From Escherichia coli (GTDB lineage: Bacteria; Pseudomonadota; Gammaproteobacteria; Enterobacterales; Enterobacteriaceae): a stretch of 64,000 nucleotides of DNA. Every line of letters starts with the position of its first letter. Positions within the stretch are counted from its first letter, which is position 1. Positions 1-45,200 of the stretch are shown here, piece by piece. Made by a program: the position numbers and the translations under genes. Location: NCBI RefSeq assembly GCF_003334255.1, contig NZ_QOWU01000007.1; one strand, written 5' to 3'. A model generated the notes under the pieces. That model was not told the origin of the DNA. It was given only the letters and a program-made list of their open reading frames with translations, and did no database searches.

Positions 1-106
1 AGCGCGGTGGTCCCACCTGACCCCATGCCGAACTCAGAAGTGAAACGCCGTAGCGCCGATGGTAGTGTGGGGTCTCCTCATGCGAGAGTAGGGAACTGCC
101 AGGCAT
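1..106 (+). rRNA. rrfA: 5S ribosomal RNA, 3' portion (5' end lies upstream of window)
   Basis: Matches the conserved enterobacterial 5S rRNA 3' region (...CCGAACTCAGAAGTGAAACGCCGTAGCGCCGATGGTAGTGTGGGG...GGGAACTGCCAGGCAT) and is followed by rrn T1/T2 terminators. Operon assigned as rrnA because mobB/mobA follow. Confidence 0.9.
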
Positions 107-9222: not shown

Positions 9223-9368
9223 GATTCGCCTGAACATGCCTTTTTTCGTAAGTAAGCAACATAAGCTGTCACGTTTTGTGATGGCTATTAGAAATTCCTA
9301 TGCAACAACTGAAAAAAAATTACAAAAAGTGCTTTCTGAACTGAACAAAAAAGAGTAAAGTTAGTCGC

Positions 9369-9477
9369 GTAGGGTACAGAGGTAAGATGTTCTATCTTTC
9401 AGACCTTTTACTTCACGTAATCGGATTTGGCTGAATATTTTAGCCGCCCCAGTCAGTAATGACTGGGGCGTTTTTTA
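9369..9477 (+). ncRNA. spf: Spot 42 small regulatory RNA
   Basis: Exact match to the 109-nt Spot 42 sequence (GTAGGGTACAGAGGTAAGATGTTCTATCTTTCAGACC...GCCGCCCCAGTCAGTAATGACTGGGGCGTTTTTTA) including its intrinsic terminator. Confidence 0.95.
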
Positions 9478-10505: not shown

Positions 10506-10750
10506 ATAGAGCGAGGACGCTAACAGGAACAATGACTCAGGATGAGGGTCAGGAGCGCCAGGAGGCGAAGACAGAGGATTGTCAGGAAGACAAACGTCCG
10601 GAGACGTAATTAAACGGAAATGGAATCAACACGGATTGTTCCGGCTAAAGGAAAAACAGGGTGTGTTGGCGGCCTGCAAGGATTGTAAGACCCGTTAAGG
10701 GTTATGAGTCAGGAAAAAAGGCGACAGAGTAATCTGTCGCCTTTTTTCTT
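10506..10750 (+). ncRNA. csrC: CsrC small RNA (CsrA-sequestering)
   Basis: About 245 nt with many GGA motifs (AGGATGAGGGTCAGGAGCGCCAGGAGGCGAAGACAGAGGATTGTCAGGAAGACA...) ending in a strong terminator (GGCGACAGAGTAATCTGTCGCCTTTTTTCTT). Boundaries approximate. Confidence 0.85.
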
Positions 10751-10816
10751 TGCTTGCTTTCTGTTAGATTCCGCCGCAAATCTATACTGAATAAAACGGC
10801 TAAAAGACGAACCATT

Positions 10817-11514: not shown

Positions 11515-12888
11515 ATGTCTGTACAGCAAATCGACTGGGATCTGGCCCTGATCCAGAAATATAACTATTCCGGGCCACGATACACCTCGTACCCGACCGC
11601 GCTGGAGTTTTCAGAAGACTTCGGCGAACAGGCGTTTTTACAAGCCGTGGCGCGCTATCCTGAGCGTCCATTATCTCTCTACGTACATATCCCGTTCTGC
11701 CATAAGCTTTGTTACTTCTGCGGTTGCAATAAGATTGTTACTCGCCAGCAGCACAAGGCCGATCAGTATCTGGACGCGCTGGAGCAAGAAATCGTCCATC
11801 GTGCACCGCTGTTCGCCGGGCGTCACGTCAGCCAATTGCACTGGGGCGGCGGAACGCCGACGTATCTGAATAAAGCGCAAATCAGCCGCCTGATGAAGCT
11901 GCTGCGCGAAAACTTCCAGTTCAATGCCGATGCGGAGATTTCGATCGAAGTCGATCCGCGGGAAATCGAACTGGATGTACTCGATCATTTACGCGCCGAA
12001 GGCTTTAATCGCCTGAGCATGGGCGTGCAGGACTTCAACAAAGAAGTGCAACGTCTGGTTAACCGCGAGCAGGATGAAGAGTTCATCTTTGCACTGCTTA
12101 ACCATGCGCGTGAGATTGGTTTTACCTCCACCAACATCGACCTGATTTACGGCCTGCCGAAACAGACGCCGGAGAGTTTCGCCTTTACCCTGAAACGTGT
12201 GGCGGAGCTGAACCCCGATCGTCTGAGTGTCTTTAACTACGCGCATCTGCCGACCATTTTTGCTGCTCAGCGCAAAATCAAAGATGCTGACCTGCCGAGT
12301 CCGCAGCAAAAACTCGATATCCTGCAGGAAACCATCGCCTTCCTGACGCAATCGGGCTATCAGTTTATCGGTATGGATCACTTTGCCCGTCCGGATGACG
12401 AGCTGGCGGTGGCCCAGCGTGAAGGCGTGCTGCATCGTAACTTCCAGGGCTACACCACTCAGGGCGATACCGATCTGCTGGGGATGGGCGTTTCCGCCAT
12501 CAGCATGATTGGCGACTGCTACGCGCAGAACCAGAAAGAGTTGAAGCAGTACTATCAGCAAGTGGATGAACAAGGCAATGCGCTGTGGCGTGGTATTGCG
12601 CTAACGCGTGATGACTGTATTCGCCGCGATGTGATTAAGTCGCTCATCTGCAACTTCCGTCTGGATTACGCCCCTATTGAGAAACAGTGGGATTTGCACT
12701 TCGCTGATTACTTTGCGGAAGATCTCAAGCTGCTCGCCCCGTTAGCAAAAGATGGGCTGGTGGATGTGGATGAGAAGGGAATACAGGTGACGGCGAAAGG
12801 TCGCTTGCTGATCCGCAACATTTGCATGTGCTTTGATACCTATCTGCGCCAGAAAGCGCGGATGCAGCAGTTCTCTCGGGTGATTTAA
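11515..12888 (+). CDS. hemN: Oxygen-independent coproporphyrinogen III dehydrogenase HemN (radical SAM)
   Basis: Radical-SAM CxxxCxxC motif (CHKLCYFCGC). Start set to the second Met of the track ORF, giving 457 aa. Confidence 0.95.
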   Translation: MSVQQIDWDLALIQKYNYSGPRYTSYPTALEFSEDFGEQAFLQAVARYPERPLSLYVHIPFCHKLCYFCGCNKIVTRQQHKADQYLDALEQEIVHRAPLFAGRHVSQLHWGGGTPTYLNKAQISRLMKLLRENFQFNADAEISIEVDPREIELDVLDHLRAEGFNRLSMGVQDFNKEVQRLVNREQDEEFIFALLNHAREIGFTSTNIDLIYGLPKQTPESFAFTLKRVAELNPDRLSVFNYAHLPTIFAAQRKIKDADLPSPQQKLDILQETIAFLTQSGYQFIGMDHFARPDDELAVAQREGVLHRNFQGYTTQGDTDLLGMGVSAISMIGDCYAQNQKELKQYYQQVDEQGNALWRGIALTRDDCIRRDVIKSLICNFRLDYAPIEKQWDLHFADYFAEDLKLLAPLAKDGLVDVDEKGIQVTAKGRLLIRNICMCFDTYLRQKARMQQFSRVI

Positions 12889-12995
12889 ATAGTGAATGGC
12901 GCTTCGTTTACAAAGTAGAAAACGAAAGCGCCATCAATGTGCTGAGAACAAGATTGCCTGATGCGCTGGGCAACAAAACCTGTTGAAATTATTGC

Positions 12996-13103
12996 TTTTG
13001 TAGGCCGGATAAGGCGTTTACGCCGCATCAGGCATCTGAGCATGATGCCTGATGCGGCGCTGGTCGCGTCTTATCAGGCCTACGACTTTCTCCGCATCCG
13101 GCA
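12996..13103. repeat. REP/BIME cluster
   Basis: Repeated GTAGGCCGGATAAGGCGTTTACGCCGCATCAGGC-type palindromic units in alternating orientation. Confidence 0.85.
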
Positions 13104-13116
13104 TAAACAACGAGCT

Positions 13117-13227
13117 TCAGCTAAACAGCCCAATCATTGCGGCACACAGCACGGCAGCAACGGCAGTTTGCGGTGTGTGGCTGTCAACTGCGCCACTCGA
13201 TACCAGATTAATTATTGATTCCAGCAT
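13117..13227 (-). CDS. yshB: Small protein YshB (36 aa, hydrophobic C-terminus)
   Basis: Reverse-strand ORF ATG...TGA encoding MLESIINLVSSGAVDSHTPQTAVAAVLCAAMIGLFS, preceded by GGGGAGAG about 6 nt upstream. Not in the supplied track (below its size cutoff). Confidence 0.7.
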   Translation of the reverse strand: MLESIINLVSSGAVDSHTPQTAVAAVLCAAMIGLFS

Positions 13228-13338
13228 AATGACTCTCCCCGTTTTCCGGGCAAGATCATACTGAACTTATCGGAACAGTAAAGCGTAAAATACCAGCAAT
13301 TTGCGCTCAATAATCAATCTTTACACACAAGCTGTGAA

Positions 13339-14748
13339 TCACTCCATCCCCAGCTCTTTTAACTTACGCGTCAGGGTGTTGCGGCCCCAGCCGAGTAGCC
13401 GCGCCGCTTCCTGTTTATGCCCCTGCGTATGTCGCAACGCGGTCGTCAGTAACGTCCGCTCCAGCTCTGGCTGCGCTTCGGAAAGCAGATTTTGATGACC
13501 GGAACGCAGCGCTCTGTCTGCCCACTGCGCAAGAAGCGTCGCCCAGCTGTCCGGTTGCATTTGCGAAGTACTCTCCGCAACCGTTGATTCAAACAGTTCG
13601 CCGGGCAAATCCTGAATCAACACTTCCTGCCCGGCGGCCATCACCGTTAGCCAGCGGCAGGTGTTTTCCAGCTGGCGCACGTTGCCTGGCCACGCCAGAC
13701 GCGTCAGAGCAGCTTCGGTTTCCGGATGCAGTAACTTCGCTTCTACGCCCAGTTCGCGCGCGGCAACCTGTAAAAAATGGCGCGCCAGACGGGGAATATC
13801 TTCCCGACGTTCGCGCAGCGGCGGCAGATGAACGCGGATAACGTTCAGGCGGTGGAACAGATCCTCACGGAACTTACCTTCCTGCACTCGCTGTTCGAGA
13901 TTCTGGTGAGTGGCAGCGATAATCCGCACATCCACTTTCACCGGCGCATAGCCGCCAACGCGGTAAAACTGACCGTCTGCCAGCACGCGCAGCAAACGCG
14001 TCTGCACATCCAGCGGCATATCACCAATTTCGTCGAGGAATAATGTACCGCCATCGGCCTGTTCAAAACGCCCCTGACGAATGGTATTCGCGCCAGTAAA
14101 CGCGCCTTTCTCGTGGCCAAACAGTTCTGATTCGATCAAATCTTTTGGGATAGCTGCCATATTCAGCGCGATAAACGGCGCTTTGGCGCGCGGACTGTGG
14201 CGATGCAGGGCATGAGCGACCAGTTCTTTACCGGTGCCGGATTCGCCGTTAATCAGCACGCTAATAGAAGAACGCGAAAGCCGACCGATAATACGGAACA
14301 CGTCCTGCATGGCTGGCGCTTCGCCGATGATATCGGTCGTTGGGCCGTTAAGCTGAACATTACGCGGCTGCTGCTGTTCCTGGTAATGACTGATAGCGCG
14401 CTCAACCAGCGCCACTGCTTCGTCGATATCAAACGGTTTGGGCAGATAATCAAACGCCCCTTGTTGATAGGCGCTGACGGCAGCATCCAGATCGGAATGT
14501 GCGGTCATAATGATGACCGGAAGCATTGGATGGCGCTGTTTAATCTGCTTGAGCAGCGCCAGCCCGTCCATTCCCGGCATACGGATATCTGAAAGCAGCA
14601 CATCCGGCGTTTTGCTCGCCAGCGCCTCCAGCACTTCTGCGCCGTTCTCAAACGTCGTACAGGTTAAACCTGCCCCAGCGAGCGCACGTTCAAGCACCCA
14701 ACGGATGGAACTATCGTCATCGACTACCCAGACTATCCCTCGTTGCAT
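13339..14748 (-). CDS. glnG: Nitrogen regulation response regulator NtrC (sigma54-dependent activator)
   Basis: Track ORF trimmed to [23 protein letters not shown] (469 aa). Receiver domain, AAA+ sigma54-interaction domain ([14 protein letters not shown]) and C-terminal HTH. Confidence 0.97.
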
Positions 14749-17635: not shown

Positions 17636-17727
17636 GCGCACCATCGTGCAAAAGGGCTGCACCACGATGTGAATGTTGCACCAATATAGTGCTTCAATGG
17701 AAACATTAAGCACCATGTTGGTGCAAT
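17636..17727. promoter_or_regulatory. NtrC enhancer sites upstream of glnA
   Basis: Multiple TGCACC-N5-GGTGCA-like dyads (GCACCATGTTGGTGCA, TTGCACCAATATAGTGC, TGCACCACGATG). Confidence 0.8.
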
Positions 17728-17876
17728 GACCTTTGGATAACCCTTTTTATGCTCCGTGAAAGCGATCACAAAGGGACTCTGCAATACTTGTTTGCGGAGG
17801 ATGTTTGTGATCCTGTTTTGTAGTGCGATTAATCCGTGTACAATAACGCGCTATTTCTAATGCCTGAGGCAAAGTT

Positions 17877-19700
17877 GTGATCGAAAAATTGCGTAATATC
17901 GCCATCATCGCGCACGTAGACCATGGTAAAACCACCCTGGTAGACAAGCTGCTCCAACAATCCGGTACGTTCGACTCTCGTGCCGAAACCCAAGAGCGCG
18001 TGATGGACTCCAACGATTTGGAGAAAGAGCGTGGGATTACCATCCTCGCGAAAAACACCGCTATCAAATGGAATGATTACCGTATCAACATCGTTGATAC
18101 CCCGGGGCACGCCGACTTCGGTGGTGAAGTTGAACGTGTAATGTCCATGGTAGACTCAGTGCTGCTGGTGGTTGACGCATTTGACGGCCCGATGCCGCAA
18201 ACGCGCTTCGTAACCAAAAAAGCGTTTGCTTACGGCCTGAAGCCGATTGTTGTTATCAACAAAGTTGACCGCCCTGGCGCGCGTCCTGATTGGGTTGTGG
18301 ATCAGGTATTCGATCTGTTCGTTAACCTCGACGCGACCGACGAGCAGCTGGACTTCCCGATCGTTTACGCTTCTGCGCTGAACGGTATCGCGGGTCTGGA
18401 CCACGAAGATATGGCGGAAGACATGACCCCGCTGTACCAGGCGATTGTTGACCACGTTCCTGCGCCGGACGTTGACCTTGACGGTCCGTTCCAGATGCAG
18501 ATTTCTCAGCTCGATTACAACAGCTATGTTGGCGTTATCGGCATTGGCCGCATCAAGCGCGGTAAAGTGAAGCCGAACCAGCAGGTCACTATCATCGATA
18601 GCGAAGGCAAAACCCGCAACGCGAAAGTCGGTAAAGTGCTGGGCCACCTCGGTCTGGAACGTATCGAAACCGATCTGGCGGAAGCTGGCGATATCGTTGC
18701 GATCACGGGCCTTGGCGAACTGAACATTTCTGACACCGTTTGCGACACGCAAAACGTTGAAGCGCTGCCGGCACTCTCCGTTGATGAGCCGACCGTTTCT
18801 ATGTTCTTCTGCGTTAACACCTCGCCGTTCTGCGGTAAAGAAGGTAAGTTCGTAACGTCTCGTCAGATCCTGGATCGTCTGAACAAAGAACTGGTACACA
18901 ACGTTGCGCTGCGCGTAGAAGAAACCGAAGACGCCGATGCGTTCCGCGTTTCTGGTCGTGGCGAACTGCACCTGTCTGTTCTGATCGAAAACATGCGTCG
19001 TGAAGGTTTCGAACTGGCGGTATCCCGTCCGAAAGTTATCTTCCGTGAAATCGACGGTCGTAAACAAGAGCCGTATGAAAACGTGACTCTGGACGTTGAA
19101 GAACAGCATCAGGGTTCTGTAATGCAGGCGCTGGGCGAACGTAAAGGCGACCTGAAAAACATGAATCCAGACGGTAAAGGCCGCGTACGTCTCGACTACG
19201 TGATCCCAAGCCGTGGTCTGATTGGCTTCCGTTCTGAGTTCATGACCATGACTTCCGGTACTGGTCTGCTGTACTCCACCTTCAGCCACTACGACGACGT
19301 ACGTCCGGGTGAAGTGGGTCAGCGTCAGAACGGCGTACTGATCTCTAACGGTCAGGGTAAAGCGGTCGCGTTCGCGCTGTTCGGTCTGCAGGATCGCGGT
19401 AAGCTGTTCCTCGGTCACGGTGCAGAAGTTTACGAAGGTCAGATTATCGGTATTCATAGCCGCTCTAACGACCTGACTGTAAACTGCCTGACCGGTAAGA
19501 AACTGACCAACATGCGTGCTTCCGGTACTGACGAAGCCGTTGTTCTGGTTCCGCCTATCCGCATGACTCTGGAACAAGCTCTGGAGTTCATCGATGATGA
19601 CGAACTGGTAGAAGTGACTCCGACCTCTATCCGTATTCGTAAACGTCACCTGACGGAAAACGATCGTCGCCGCGCCAACCGCGCACCGAAAGACGATTAA
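17877..19700 (+). CDS. typA: Ribosome-associated translational GTPase BipA/TypA
   Basis: 607-aa ORF with a GTG start. EF-G-like GTPase ([21 protein letters not shown]). Confidence 0.97.
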
Positions 19701-19716
19701 TTTCGTTTTTTAGTCA

Positions 19717-19751
19717 TAAAAAACCTGCCAGCGATGGCAGGTTTTTTTTTG
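19717..19751 (+). terminator. Rho-independent terminator after typA
   Basis: AAAAACCTGCCAGCGATGGCAGGTTTTTTTTTG. Confidence 0.85.
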
Positions 19752-19916
19752 CCTGTCGTGAGCGCACACCAATGCGAGTATCTCCCTTATAAGTCTGTGG
19801 TTACGTCAATAGAGAGCTTTGTCACAATTATCTGCAAAGTCATACGCCGTTAATTGCTTTCTTTTTTGGCGTAAGCGTAAGATGCTTCATCTGGTTTAAA
19901 CCAAAAGGATTAAACA

Positions 19917-42241: not shown

Positions 42242-45200
42242 TTACACCTTTTCCACATTCACAAGGAAGGACTTAAACTCCGGCGTCTGCGTGTTCGCAT
42301 CACCAACGAATGGCGTTAAAGTATTGGCAATAAAGCCTTTTTTAGCTACGCCTTCATAGCCCCAGTGAATCGGAATACCGATGGTATCGATATCTTTGCC
42401 GTTCGCTTTCAGCGTGCGAATACGTTTGGTCACCACCGCTTTGGCTTTGATATAGCCACGGTTGGAGGAGACTTTCACGGTATCGCCCTGGGCAATGCCA
42501 AGTTTATTCGCCAGCGACTCCCCGATTTCCACAAACTGCTCTGGCTGCAAAATCGCGTTCAACAGCGCGTGTTTGGTCCAGTAGTGGAAGTGCTCGGTCA
42601 GACGATAGGTGGTTCCGACATACGGGAACTTATCGGCTTTACCCAATGCTTCGGCGTCGTCTTTAAAGATACGTGCAGCCGGGTTCGAGATAACGTTTGG
42701 ATGCAGCGGGTTAGTTCCCAGCGGCGTTTCAAACGGCTCGTAGTGTTCCGGGAACGGACCTTCCGCCATCTTATCGAGGGCAAACAGACGCCCCATGCCT
42801 TCCTGCTGCATGATAAACGGCCCGACGCCGCTACCCGGAGGCGCTGCGCTGTAGTCCGGAATATCCCAGCCGGTCCACTTAGTGCCGTCCCATTTCAGCA
42901 ACTGACGCTTCGGATCCCACGGGTTACCCTGCGGATCTGCGGAGGCGCGGTTATACAGAATGCGGCGGTTAAGCGGCCATGCCCATGCCCAGCCCAGCGT
43001 GTTACCGAGGCCAGACGGATCGGCGTTATCACGGCGTGCCATCTGGTTGCCTTCCGGCGTCCAGCTACCGGCGAAAATCCAGCAGCCACAGGAGGTTGTA
43101 CCGTCATCGCGCAATTGGGCGAACGAACTAAGTTGTTGGCCTTTCTTGACGATAACCGCACCGGTTGCCGGATCGGTAATATCGGCCAGCGCCTTACCGT
43201 TGCTCTCCATCGCCACTTCTTCTGAAGATGGCTCATGCGGAATGGCGTAGTTCCATGTCATGTTGAGCACCTGGTCCGGGTTCGCGCCACCCTGTTCGGC
43301 ATACATCTTGCGCAAGCGCAGGAAGATACCGGAGAGGATCTCGCCGTCAGTCAGCGCAATCCCCGGGGCGTCCGCACCTTTCCAGTGCCACTGTAACCAG
43401 CGACCTGAGTTAACGATAGAACCGTTCTCTTCCGCGAAGCAGGTCGATGGCAGACGGAACACTTCGGTCTGGATCTTCGACGAGTCAACTTCGTTCAGCT
43501 CACCGTGGTTCTGCCAGAAGTTAGAGGTTTCAGTGTTCAGTGGGTCGATGGTGACGAGGAACTTCAGTTTCGACAGACAACCGATCACTTTGTTTTTGTT
43601 CGGGAATGAGGCAACAGGGTTAAAGCCCTGGCAGATATAGCCATTGACCTTGCCCTCTTTCATCATCTCGAAGTATTGCAGGACGTCGTAGCCTTTATCC
43701 CACTTCGGCAACCAGTCAAAGCCCCAGCTATTTTCCGCCGTCGCTTTATCACCAAAGAAGGCCTTCATCATAGAGACGAAGAATTTCGGGTAGTTGCCCC
43801 AGTAGTTTACCTGGCCTTCCAGCAGCGGTTTTGGCGTGTTGGCGGTAAGGTAGGTTTGCAGATCGGTCTGCTTCTCGCTTGGCAGCGTCATGTAACCTGG
43901 CAGGCTCTGCGACAGCAGCCCCAGGTCCGTCAGCCCCTGAATATTGGAGTGACCGCGCAGGGCGTTAACGCCGCCGCCTGCCATCCCCATATTGCCGAGC
44001 AGCAGCTGGATCATCGCCATCGTACGAATGTTTTGCGCACCAACGGAGTGTTGCGTCCAGCCGAGGGCATACAGGAACGAGGCAGTTTTATCGTGAGCAC
44101 TGGTTTCTGCGATGTATTCGCAGACTTTCAGGAACGCGTCTTTTGGCGTACCACAGATGTTTTCAACCACATCTGGCGTGTAGCGGGAAACGTGCTGTTT
44201 CAGCAAGTTCCACACGCAGCGCGGATGTTGCAGCGTGGTATCGCGTTTGGCGAAGCCGTTTTCGTCCAGTTCATAAGTCCAGGAGGATTTATCGTACTTG
44301 CGTTTTTCCGCGTCGTAGCCGGTGAACAGGCCATCTTCAAAGCCGTAATCCTCACGCACGATCAGGCTGGCGTTGGTATAGGCTTCGGTGTATTCGCGGT
44401 TGAATTTTTCATTGTTCAGCAGGTACAGCAATACGCCTGACAGGAAAGCAATGTCAGTACCGGAACGAATAGGGGCATAGTAGTCAGCTACCGCCGCCGT
44501 ACGCGTAAAGCGAGGATCGATCACAATCAGCTTCGCGCCGTTGTGAATTTTGGCTTCCATCGCCCAGCGGAACCCGACCGGGTGAGCTTCAGCGGCATTA
44601 CCGCCCATCACCACGACGAGGTTGGCGTTCTTGATGTCGACCCAGTGGTTGGTCATCGCACCGCGACCAAATGTTGGAGCAAGACTTGCTACCGTTGGTC
44701 CGTGTCAGACACGCGCCTGGTTGTCGACCGCGAGCATACCCAGCGCGCGGGAGAATTTTTGCGTTAAATAGCCGGTTTCGTTACTCGACGCGGAAGCACA
44801 CAGCATCCCGGTGGAGAGCCAGCGGTTAACAGTCACGCCTTCGGCGTTTTGCGCAATGTAGTTAGCATCGCGGTCTTCTTTCATCAGTTTGGCGATGCGA
44901 TCAAACGCCTCTTCCCAACTGATTTGCTGCCATTTATCAGAACCTGGCGCACGGTATTCCGGAAACTTCAGACGGCTTTCGGAGTGGATGAAATCCACCA
45001 GGCCAGCGCCTTTCGGACAAAGTGCACCGCGGTTGACCGGGTGATCCGGATCGCCTTCGATATGGAAGATAGATGCTTTGGCGTTTTTTGCTCCGTCACC
45101 GAGGCTGTACATCAACAGCCCACAGCCTACGGAACAATAGGTGCAGGTATTACGGGTTTCGCGGGTGCGCAGCAGTTTATACTGCCGGGTTTCCGCGAGT

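Follow-up and report, generated by a model that had tools for sequence, protein, structure and literature searches.

Besides YshB of E. coli K-12 itself, the described counterparts of the gene analyzed here include the small inner-membrane regulator proteins MgrB, AcrZ, MgtS, and CydX of E. coli, which, like YshB, are proteins of fewer than 50 amino acids with one hydrophobic helix, encoded by stand-alone genes that have their own promoter and Shine-Dalgarno (SD) sequence. Each of these four exerts its effect on a larger membrane protein to which it binds, whereas for YshB such a mode of action is proposed by analogy only; moreover, YshB has no sequence similarity to them, lacks basic residues, and carries its hydrophobic segment at the extreme C-terminus, in a tail-anchor-like arrangement. 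MgrB and CydX were part of the same RseP screen as YshB (PMC10470546). HokB and its relatives resemble YshB in size, hydrophobicity, and status as RseP substrates, but yshB comes with neither an antitoxin RNA nor a long folded leader, no toxicity has been reported for it, and its inheritance is strictly vertical and single-copy. Regarding genomic position, the sRNA NrsZ of Pseudomonas aeruginosa, found downstream of ntrBC, occupies the same place relative to the NtrBC genes as yshB (PMC9731577); however, NrsZ is RpoN-dependent and non-coding, whereas yshB is protein-coding, has a sigma-70-like promoter, and reportedly does not respond to nitrogen limitation.

The discovery of yshB is attributed to Hemm et al. 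2008, as cited in PMC10470546 and PMC9731577. Native YshB has been detected by top-down mass spectrometry (PMC12529367), and PMC7549839 puts its copy number per cell above 11,000 on the basis of ribosome-profiling-derived synthesis data (Li et al. 2014), and reports that the C-terminally His-tagged protein was not detectable. The protein is a class I RseP substrate, cleaved both in vivo, by plasmid-borne and chromosomal RseP, and in vitro, by the purified enzyme, and these assays were always performed with N-terminally tagged constructs (PMC10470546). In Salmonella, a role of YshB in intracellular replication and virulence is credited to Bomjan et al. 2019 by PMC10470546 and PMC9731577, and the partner, topology, and role of this protein bear on Salmonella virulence.

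We analyzed a 64,000-nucleotide stretch of Escherichia coli DNA, hereafter the window. At 13117..13227 of its minus strand, an open reading frame (ORF) starts with ATG and runs for 36 codons plus TGA (111 nt with the stop); coordinates and strand were thus reproduced as the original prediction had given them. The product of this ORF is MLESIINLVSSGAVDSHTPQTAVAAVLCAAMIGLFS. In the 541-nt region around it, MG1655 (E. coli K-12) and further strains matched the window with 100% identity, and the RefSeq CDS placed at exactly these coordinates is yshB, "YshB family small membrane protein", WP_000893994.1. In agreement, the protein scored 72.1 bits against the NCBIfam equivalog NF033841 (small_YshB; cut-off 34, E = 2.4e-20), with residues 1-36 covered, and an exact-sequence look-up of the 36 amino acids retrieved YSHB_ECOLI / 'YshB family small membrane protein'. 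The name "yshB-like", proposed from the letters alone, was supported; the ORF is yshB itself, identical to YSHB_ECOLI / WP_000893994.1 and above the NF033841 cut-off. When compared with YshB of E. coli K-12 (b4686), sequence, coordinates, and neighbors were all identical and no difference was found, and P0003, the common variant from Salmonella that falls in the same 90% cluster, has 3 of 36 residues different from the window protein. Pfam contains no family for YshB, and the PDB contains no solved structure related to it.

Accordingly, yshB is a real gene, already annotated and experimentally detected, and nothing in it is new. It has reportedly been annotated ever since the small-protein surveys of 2008, and all RefSeq E. 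coli genomes that we sampled carry its name. As a whole, the observations are best explained, with near certainty in our judgment, by the window ORF being yshB, which stands alone as a gene and encodes a 36-residue protein with a putative membrane mechanism. The features of the locus and of the rest of the window are collected in Table 1.

Table 1. Position and supporting evidence of the features found in the window
Feature	Position	Strand	Evidence
yshB CDS (36 codons + TGA)	13117..13227	-	sequence, RefSeq annotation, NF033841, orthologue conservation, AF2 model
Shine-Dalgarno GGGGAG; GGAG core 13238..13235	13235..13240	-	core ends 7 nt before ATG
Possible leader hairpin CCCG-GAAAA-CGGG, touching SD	13238..13250	-	folding
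Sigma-70-type promoter-like site: -35 TTTACT 13282..13277, 16-nt spacer, -10 TATGAT 13260..13255	13255..13282	-	consensus scan
Conserved blocks 5' of -35: TGTAAAG (13325..13319), GCGCAAATTGCTGGTATTTTACG (13306..13284)	13284..13325	-	conservation in >15 genera
REP/BIME cluster in the yshB-hemN spacer	12953..13102	.	Rfam naRNA4, inverted repeats, fold z
Long G+C-rich hairpin adjoining the hemN stop	12895..12935	.	stable stem in MFE and centroid structures
5S rRNA, cut by the window start	1-104		Rfam, gathering score
Spot 42	9359-9477		Rfam, gathering score
ES222	17688-17795		Rfam, gathering score
STnc370	19685-19753		Rfam, gathering score
SECIS_3 element	44652-44710		Rfam, gathering score

Chance expectation and constraint on the reading frame

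A length of 36 codons is by itself not significant evidence of a gene. In the six frames of the window, we found 508 ORFs of at least 36 aa, and 277 of these were 36-59 aa long. An ATG as the first start together with an SD core at -14..-5 was present in only 3 of these 277 ORFs, and the yshB ORF was the sole hydrophobic one among the three, with a GRAVY of +1.12. The exercise therefore has calibration value, as a reader with the sequence alone picked a genuine gene of less than 60 aa among 277 ORFs of the same size by means of SD and hydrophobicity; its discovery value is small, since yshB has long been annotated. This abundance of short ORFs, along with the REP elements that adjoin yshB, would suit a chance ORF in a repeat-rich intergenic spacer, with no product. 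However, the ORF and the REPs do not overlap, and native protein has been seen by mass spectrometry (PMC12529367). Judging from the sequences compared below, the decisive evidence for a gene is comparative.

Within E. coli, yshB and its leader, searched as matches with at least 95% identity, were single-copy in all 5426 complete genomes, and 20 out of 20 records sampled across the match ranking carried the annotation yshB. Two of the 5426 matches were in plasmid-labelled records, which are probably mislabelled replicons or chromosome fragments. For orthologues, a pattern scan with one genome per species rendered 62 loci. Among Enterobacteriaceae, these were in Escherichia, Salmonella, Citrobacter, Enterobacter, Kosakonia, Trabulsiella, Pluralibacter, Phytobacter, Franconibacter, Mangrovibacter, Leclercia, and Klebsiella indica, and outside this family, in Erwinia, Izhakiella, Pantoea, and Brenneria. 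The gene order was kept as well: in 60 of the 62 loci, glnG preceded yshB on its strand, typically at a distance of 108-113 nt, and in 61, a convergent hemN followed. An intact, ATG-initiated ORF of 35, 36, 40, or 41 aa was found in 61/61 full-length loci; the remaining locus (L059) was left out of this count, as its sequence stretch ends inside the locus. Since ORFs of all four lengths were intact, every length difference is in frame. Frame-disrupting indels in relatives, by which the original prediction had proposed to be judged, were looked for, and none was found in the 61 full-length loci.

In 61 distinct coding sequences, the summed column entropy was 19.9 at the first, 9.7 at the second, and 47.9 at the third codon position; thus, variation was concentrated at third positions and the second positions were the most conserved. 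Pairwise dN/dS values against the window sequence were 0.02-0.26, with synonymous sites near saturation. The yshB reading frame is, therefore, under purifying selection. Set against the chance reading, the third-position-dominated variation, these dN/dS values, and length differences that are in frame only, across more than 15 genera, are joined by the retention of the ORF in species where only 5-100 nt separate yshB from hemN, too short a spacer for such a REP cluster. Collectively, the orthologue frame, selection, and spacer data refuted the idea of a chance ORF or REP artefact, the probability of which we consider practically nil.

Some irregular records were also observed. In Enterobacter sp. 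EA-1 (L016) and Citrobacter amalonaticus AUH_CA_2023_1 (L022), the longest glnG match stopped at residue 351 or 382 with yshB intact, which suggests frameshift errors or disruption of glnG in these two. In addition, the YshB variants P0011, P0017, P0021, and P0022, rare among the billions of database proteins, carried a stop-loss (giving 43 aa, in Salmonella serovar Uzaramo) or had their C-terminal half frameshifted; these isolated cases reflect sequencing errors or else disrupted alleles that are rare.

Expression signals and flanking elements

The GGAG-type SD that had been claimed for this ORF was recovered at 13238..13235, 7 nt before the ATG, and a G-rich SD (GGGGG or GGAG) was found at equal distance in every full-length orthologous locus. 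Further 5', a sigma-70 consensus scan detected a promoter-like site with 9 out of 12 consensus matches. Among 61 distinct upstream sequences, which represent more than 15 genera, CTTTACT did not vary and GTATGAT hardly did; yshB has been described as having its own promoter (PMC9731577). The second of the two conserved blocks 5' of the -35 (GCGCAAATTGCTG-TATTTTG) contains the near-palindrome GCAA-A-TTGC, and these blocks could be a UP-element-like A/T tract or the site of a regulator. We also observed that the promoter-like site combines its 16-nt spacer with an A/T tract just 5' of the -35, and that its -10 is directly followed by the G+C-rich TGCCCGG (13246-13282, minus strand). This layout resembles that of growth-rate or stringently controlled promoters, a likeness that we offer as speculation. 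Both yshB and rplM were down-regulated in a transcriptome study of the mouse gut, where yshB belonged to the common differentially expressed genes (PMC12592466).

Folding of the leader gave a possible hairpin with an MFE of -8.3 kcal/mol in E. coli. Similar hairpins were found in most orthologues, with a mean z of -0.54 versus shuffles, and in some of them, the variants CGCG/CGCG, GCG/CGC, and CCGG/CCGG preserved pairing. RNAalifold returned no consensus pairs on the orthologue leaders, and explicit pair counting showed 79% of cells paired, a value reached by 12 of 500 shuffles; slid registers also gave 55-69%, owing to the G-run. Transcription usually starts 5-9 nt after the -10, and with such a start, the 5' arm of the hairpin may lie outside the transcript from this promoter. 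Pairing was at best weakly above the controls, and a leader hairpin partly over the SD is a candidate with weak statistical support.

This structure bears on whether the conserved element might be mainly a regulatory RNA, either derived from the glnG 3' UTR or an independent sRNA, possibly of dual function, with the ORF as a secondary trait. The position of NrsZ downstream of ntrBC in Pseudomonas (PMC9731577) and the possible conserved 5' hairpin would agree with this proposal. Nevertheless, the hairpin covariation was inconclusive (no RNAalifold consensus pair, with the 79% of paired cells given above), no Rfam family matched the ORF or the leader at E <= 1, and the only strong match in 12600..13600 was the REP-derived naRNA4. 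Moreover, constraint follows the codon frame, with the second positions most conserved and the third nearly saturated, which is the signature of constraint on a protein. A pure sRNA was, therefore, rejected on the basis of codon-phased constraint and the lack of an RNA family match, and we regard a mainly regulatory RNA as very unlikely, although the transcript may have a base-pairing role in addition to encoding YshB.

With yshB taken as a protein-coding gene, its flanks were defined as follows. The glnG stop codon ends at 13339, leaving a spacer of 111 nt to yshB on the same strand, and hemN, convergent with yshB, ends at 12888, leaving a spacer of 228 nt. The ORF had been described as lying immediately upstream of glnG, and this was wrong, as on the coding (minus) strand, yshB is downstream (3') of glnG; its placement between REP arrays and the glnG 3' end was right, with the REPs at ~12953..13102 and the glnG stop extending to 13339. 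Inside the REP/BIME cluster, inverted repeats were found, the fold z was -8.2, and Rfam naRNA4 (RF02564) matched above the gathering threshold with 75.2 bits at 13003..13080. The cluster is outside the yshB gene and probably in its 3' UTR. Across species, the gap between yshB and hemN ranged from 5 to 611 nt, and was 5-100 nt in most other genera; the REPs are, therefore, a lineage-specific insertion, in the Escherichia lineage, and not part of the gene. A second naRNA4 (RF02564) copy was observed at 62609-62686.

Transcripts of the convergent genes hemN and yshB may share a terminator, for which the long hairpin adjoining the hemN stop is the candidate. This role is an inference, as a simple terminator scan 3' of yshB detected no site with a T-run. 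A function of the ORF as a leader peptide or upstream regulatory ORF was considered too, and rejected: there is no co-directional gene downstream, hemN is convergent, and REPs and hairpin lie in between.

Protein features, topology, and proposed action

The hydrophobic C-terminal half announced for this protein was borne out by our analysis. The best 15-residue hydrophobic window was T21-F35, with a Kyte-Doolittle mean of 2.37 and a Wimley-White octanol sum of -3.0 kcal/mol. The hydrophobic moment was 1.73 over residues 1-12, as in an amphipathic segment, versus 0.39 in the C-terminal segment, which is uniformly hydrophobic. An AlphaFold2 model, built from a 30-sequence alignment, predicted a helix at 2-15, a break at S16, and a second helix at 17-35, with a mean pLDDT of 76.5. 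The invariant positions were M1, H17, P19, Q20, T21, A22, A25, C28, and A29.

The proposal of a single transmembrane helix is compatible with these data: both the 21-35 window and the modelled helix 17-35 fit one span, but a marginal one, since the clearly hydrophobic stretch has ~15-16 residues, reaches the C-terminus, and has no flanking K/R. E. coli YshB contains neither Lys nor Arg, and E3, D15, and H17 are the sole residues with a charge or an ionisable group; nearly all orthologues likewise lack Lys and Arg, and the orientation of the protein can therefore not be read from the positive-inside rule. Substrates of RseP are normally N-in/C-out. The published transmembrane call, with no experimental topology, comes from TOPCONS and not from TMHMM, and places the span at 15-35 with an N-out/C-in orientation (PMC10470546 Table S1). 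The intramembrane cleavage of tagged YshB by RseP supports membrane insertion.

A small hydrophobic protein such as YshB might also be a type I toxin-like peptide of the Hok/Ldr/Ibs/TisB kind, membrane-damaging when made, and in line with this, YshB and the Hok toxins came from the same RseP substrate screen (PMC10470546). On the other hand, the basic residues that such toxins usually have are absent from YshB, and its high copy number is reported without toxicity in the account given by PMC7549839. In addition, no antisense or antitoxin RNA family was found by Rfam in 12600..13600 at E <= 1, and the leader, at most ~27 nt as counted from the -10 to the ATG, is not long and structured. In all E. 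coli and in many genera, moreover, the gene is single-copy and vertically inherited, and its synteny is fixed. It was on the missing antitoxin RNA, the short leader, and the strict single-copy vertical inheritance that we rejected a toxin, a possibility that we deem extremely improbable.

For YshB as a small membrane protein with a function of its own, the following mode of action can be envisaged. Residues 2-15 would form an amphipathic N-terminal helix at the cytoplasmic membrane surface, followed by a kink and by the invariant H17-x-P19-Q20-T21-A22 motif, which could work as a hinge. The C-terminal, tail-anchor-like hydrophobic helix (~17-35), with the invariant C28, would insert in the inner membrane. 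By analogy with MgrB, AcrZ, MgtS, and CydX, the most likely role of YshB would be to bind a larger inner-membrane protein and modulate it; the YshB level could be limited by RseP, whose cleavage of YshB is known for tagged constructs only. In its most specific form, the proposal is that of a tail-anchored, charge-less micro-protein, whose HxPQTA hinge and C28 would bind one inner-membrane partner, whose amount would be set by an SD-covering leader hairpin along with RseP proteolysis, and whose promoter layout might link it to growth-rate or stringent control; we put this forward tentatively, as a set of details rather unlikely to hold in full.

Other features of the window

The additional Rfam matches listed in Table 1 are consistent with the E. 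coli K-12 neighborhood around polA, glnALG, and hemN. In the same scan, the CsrC sRNA gene (Rfam RF00084) scored 278.7 bits at 10506-10759. This gene encloses a pseudo-CDS that RefSeq NZ_CP032667.1 annotates as 'hypothetical protein; frameshifted; internal stop', corresponding to window positions ~10532-10698 (L001 153-319), and given its location inside CsrC, this pseudo-CDS is probably an annotation artefact.
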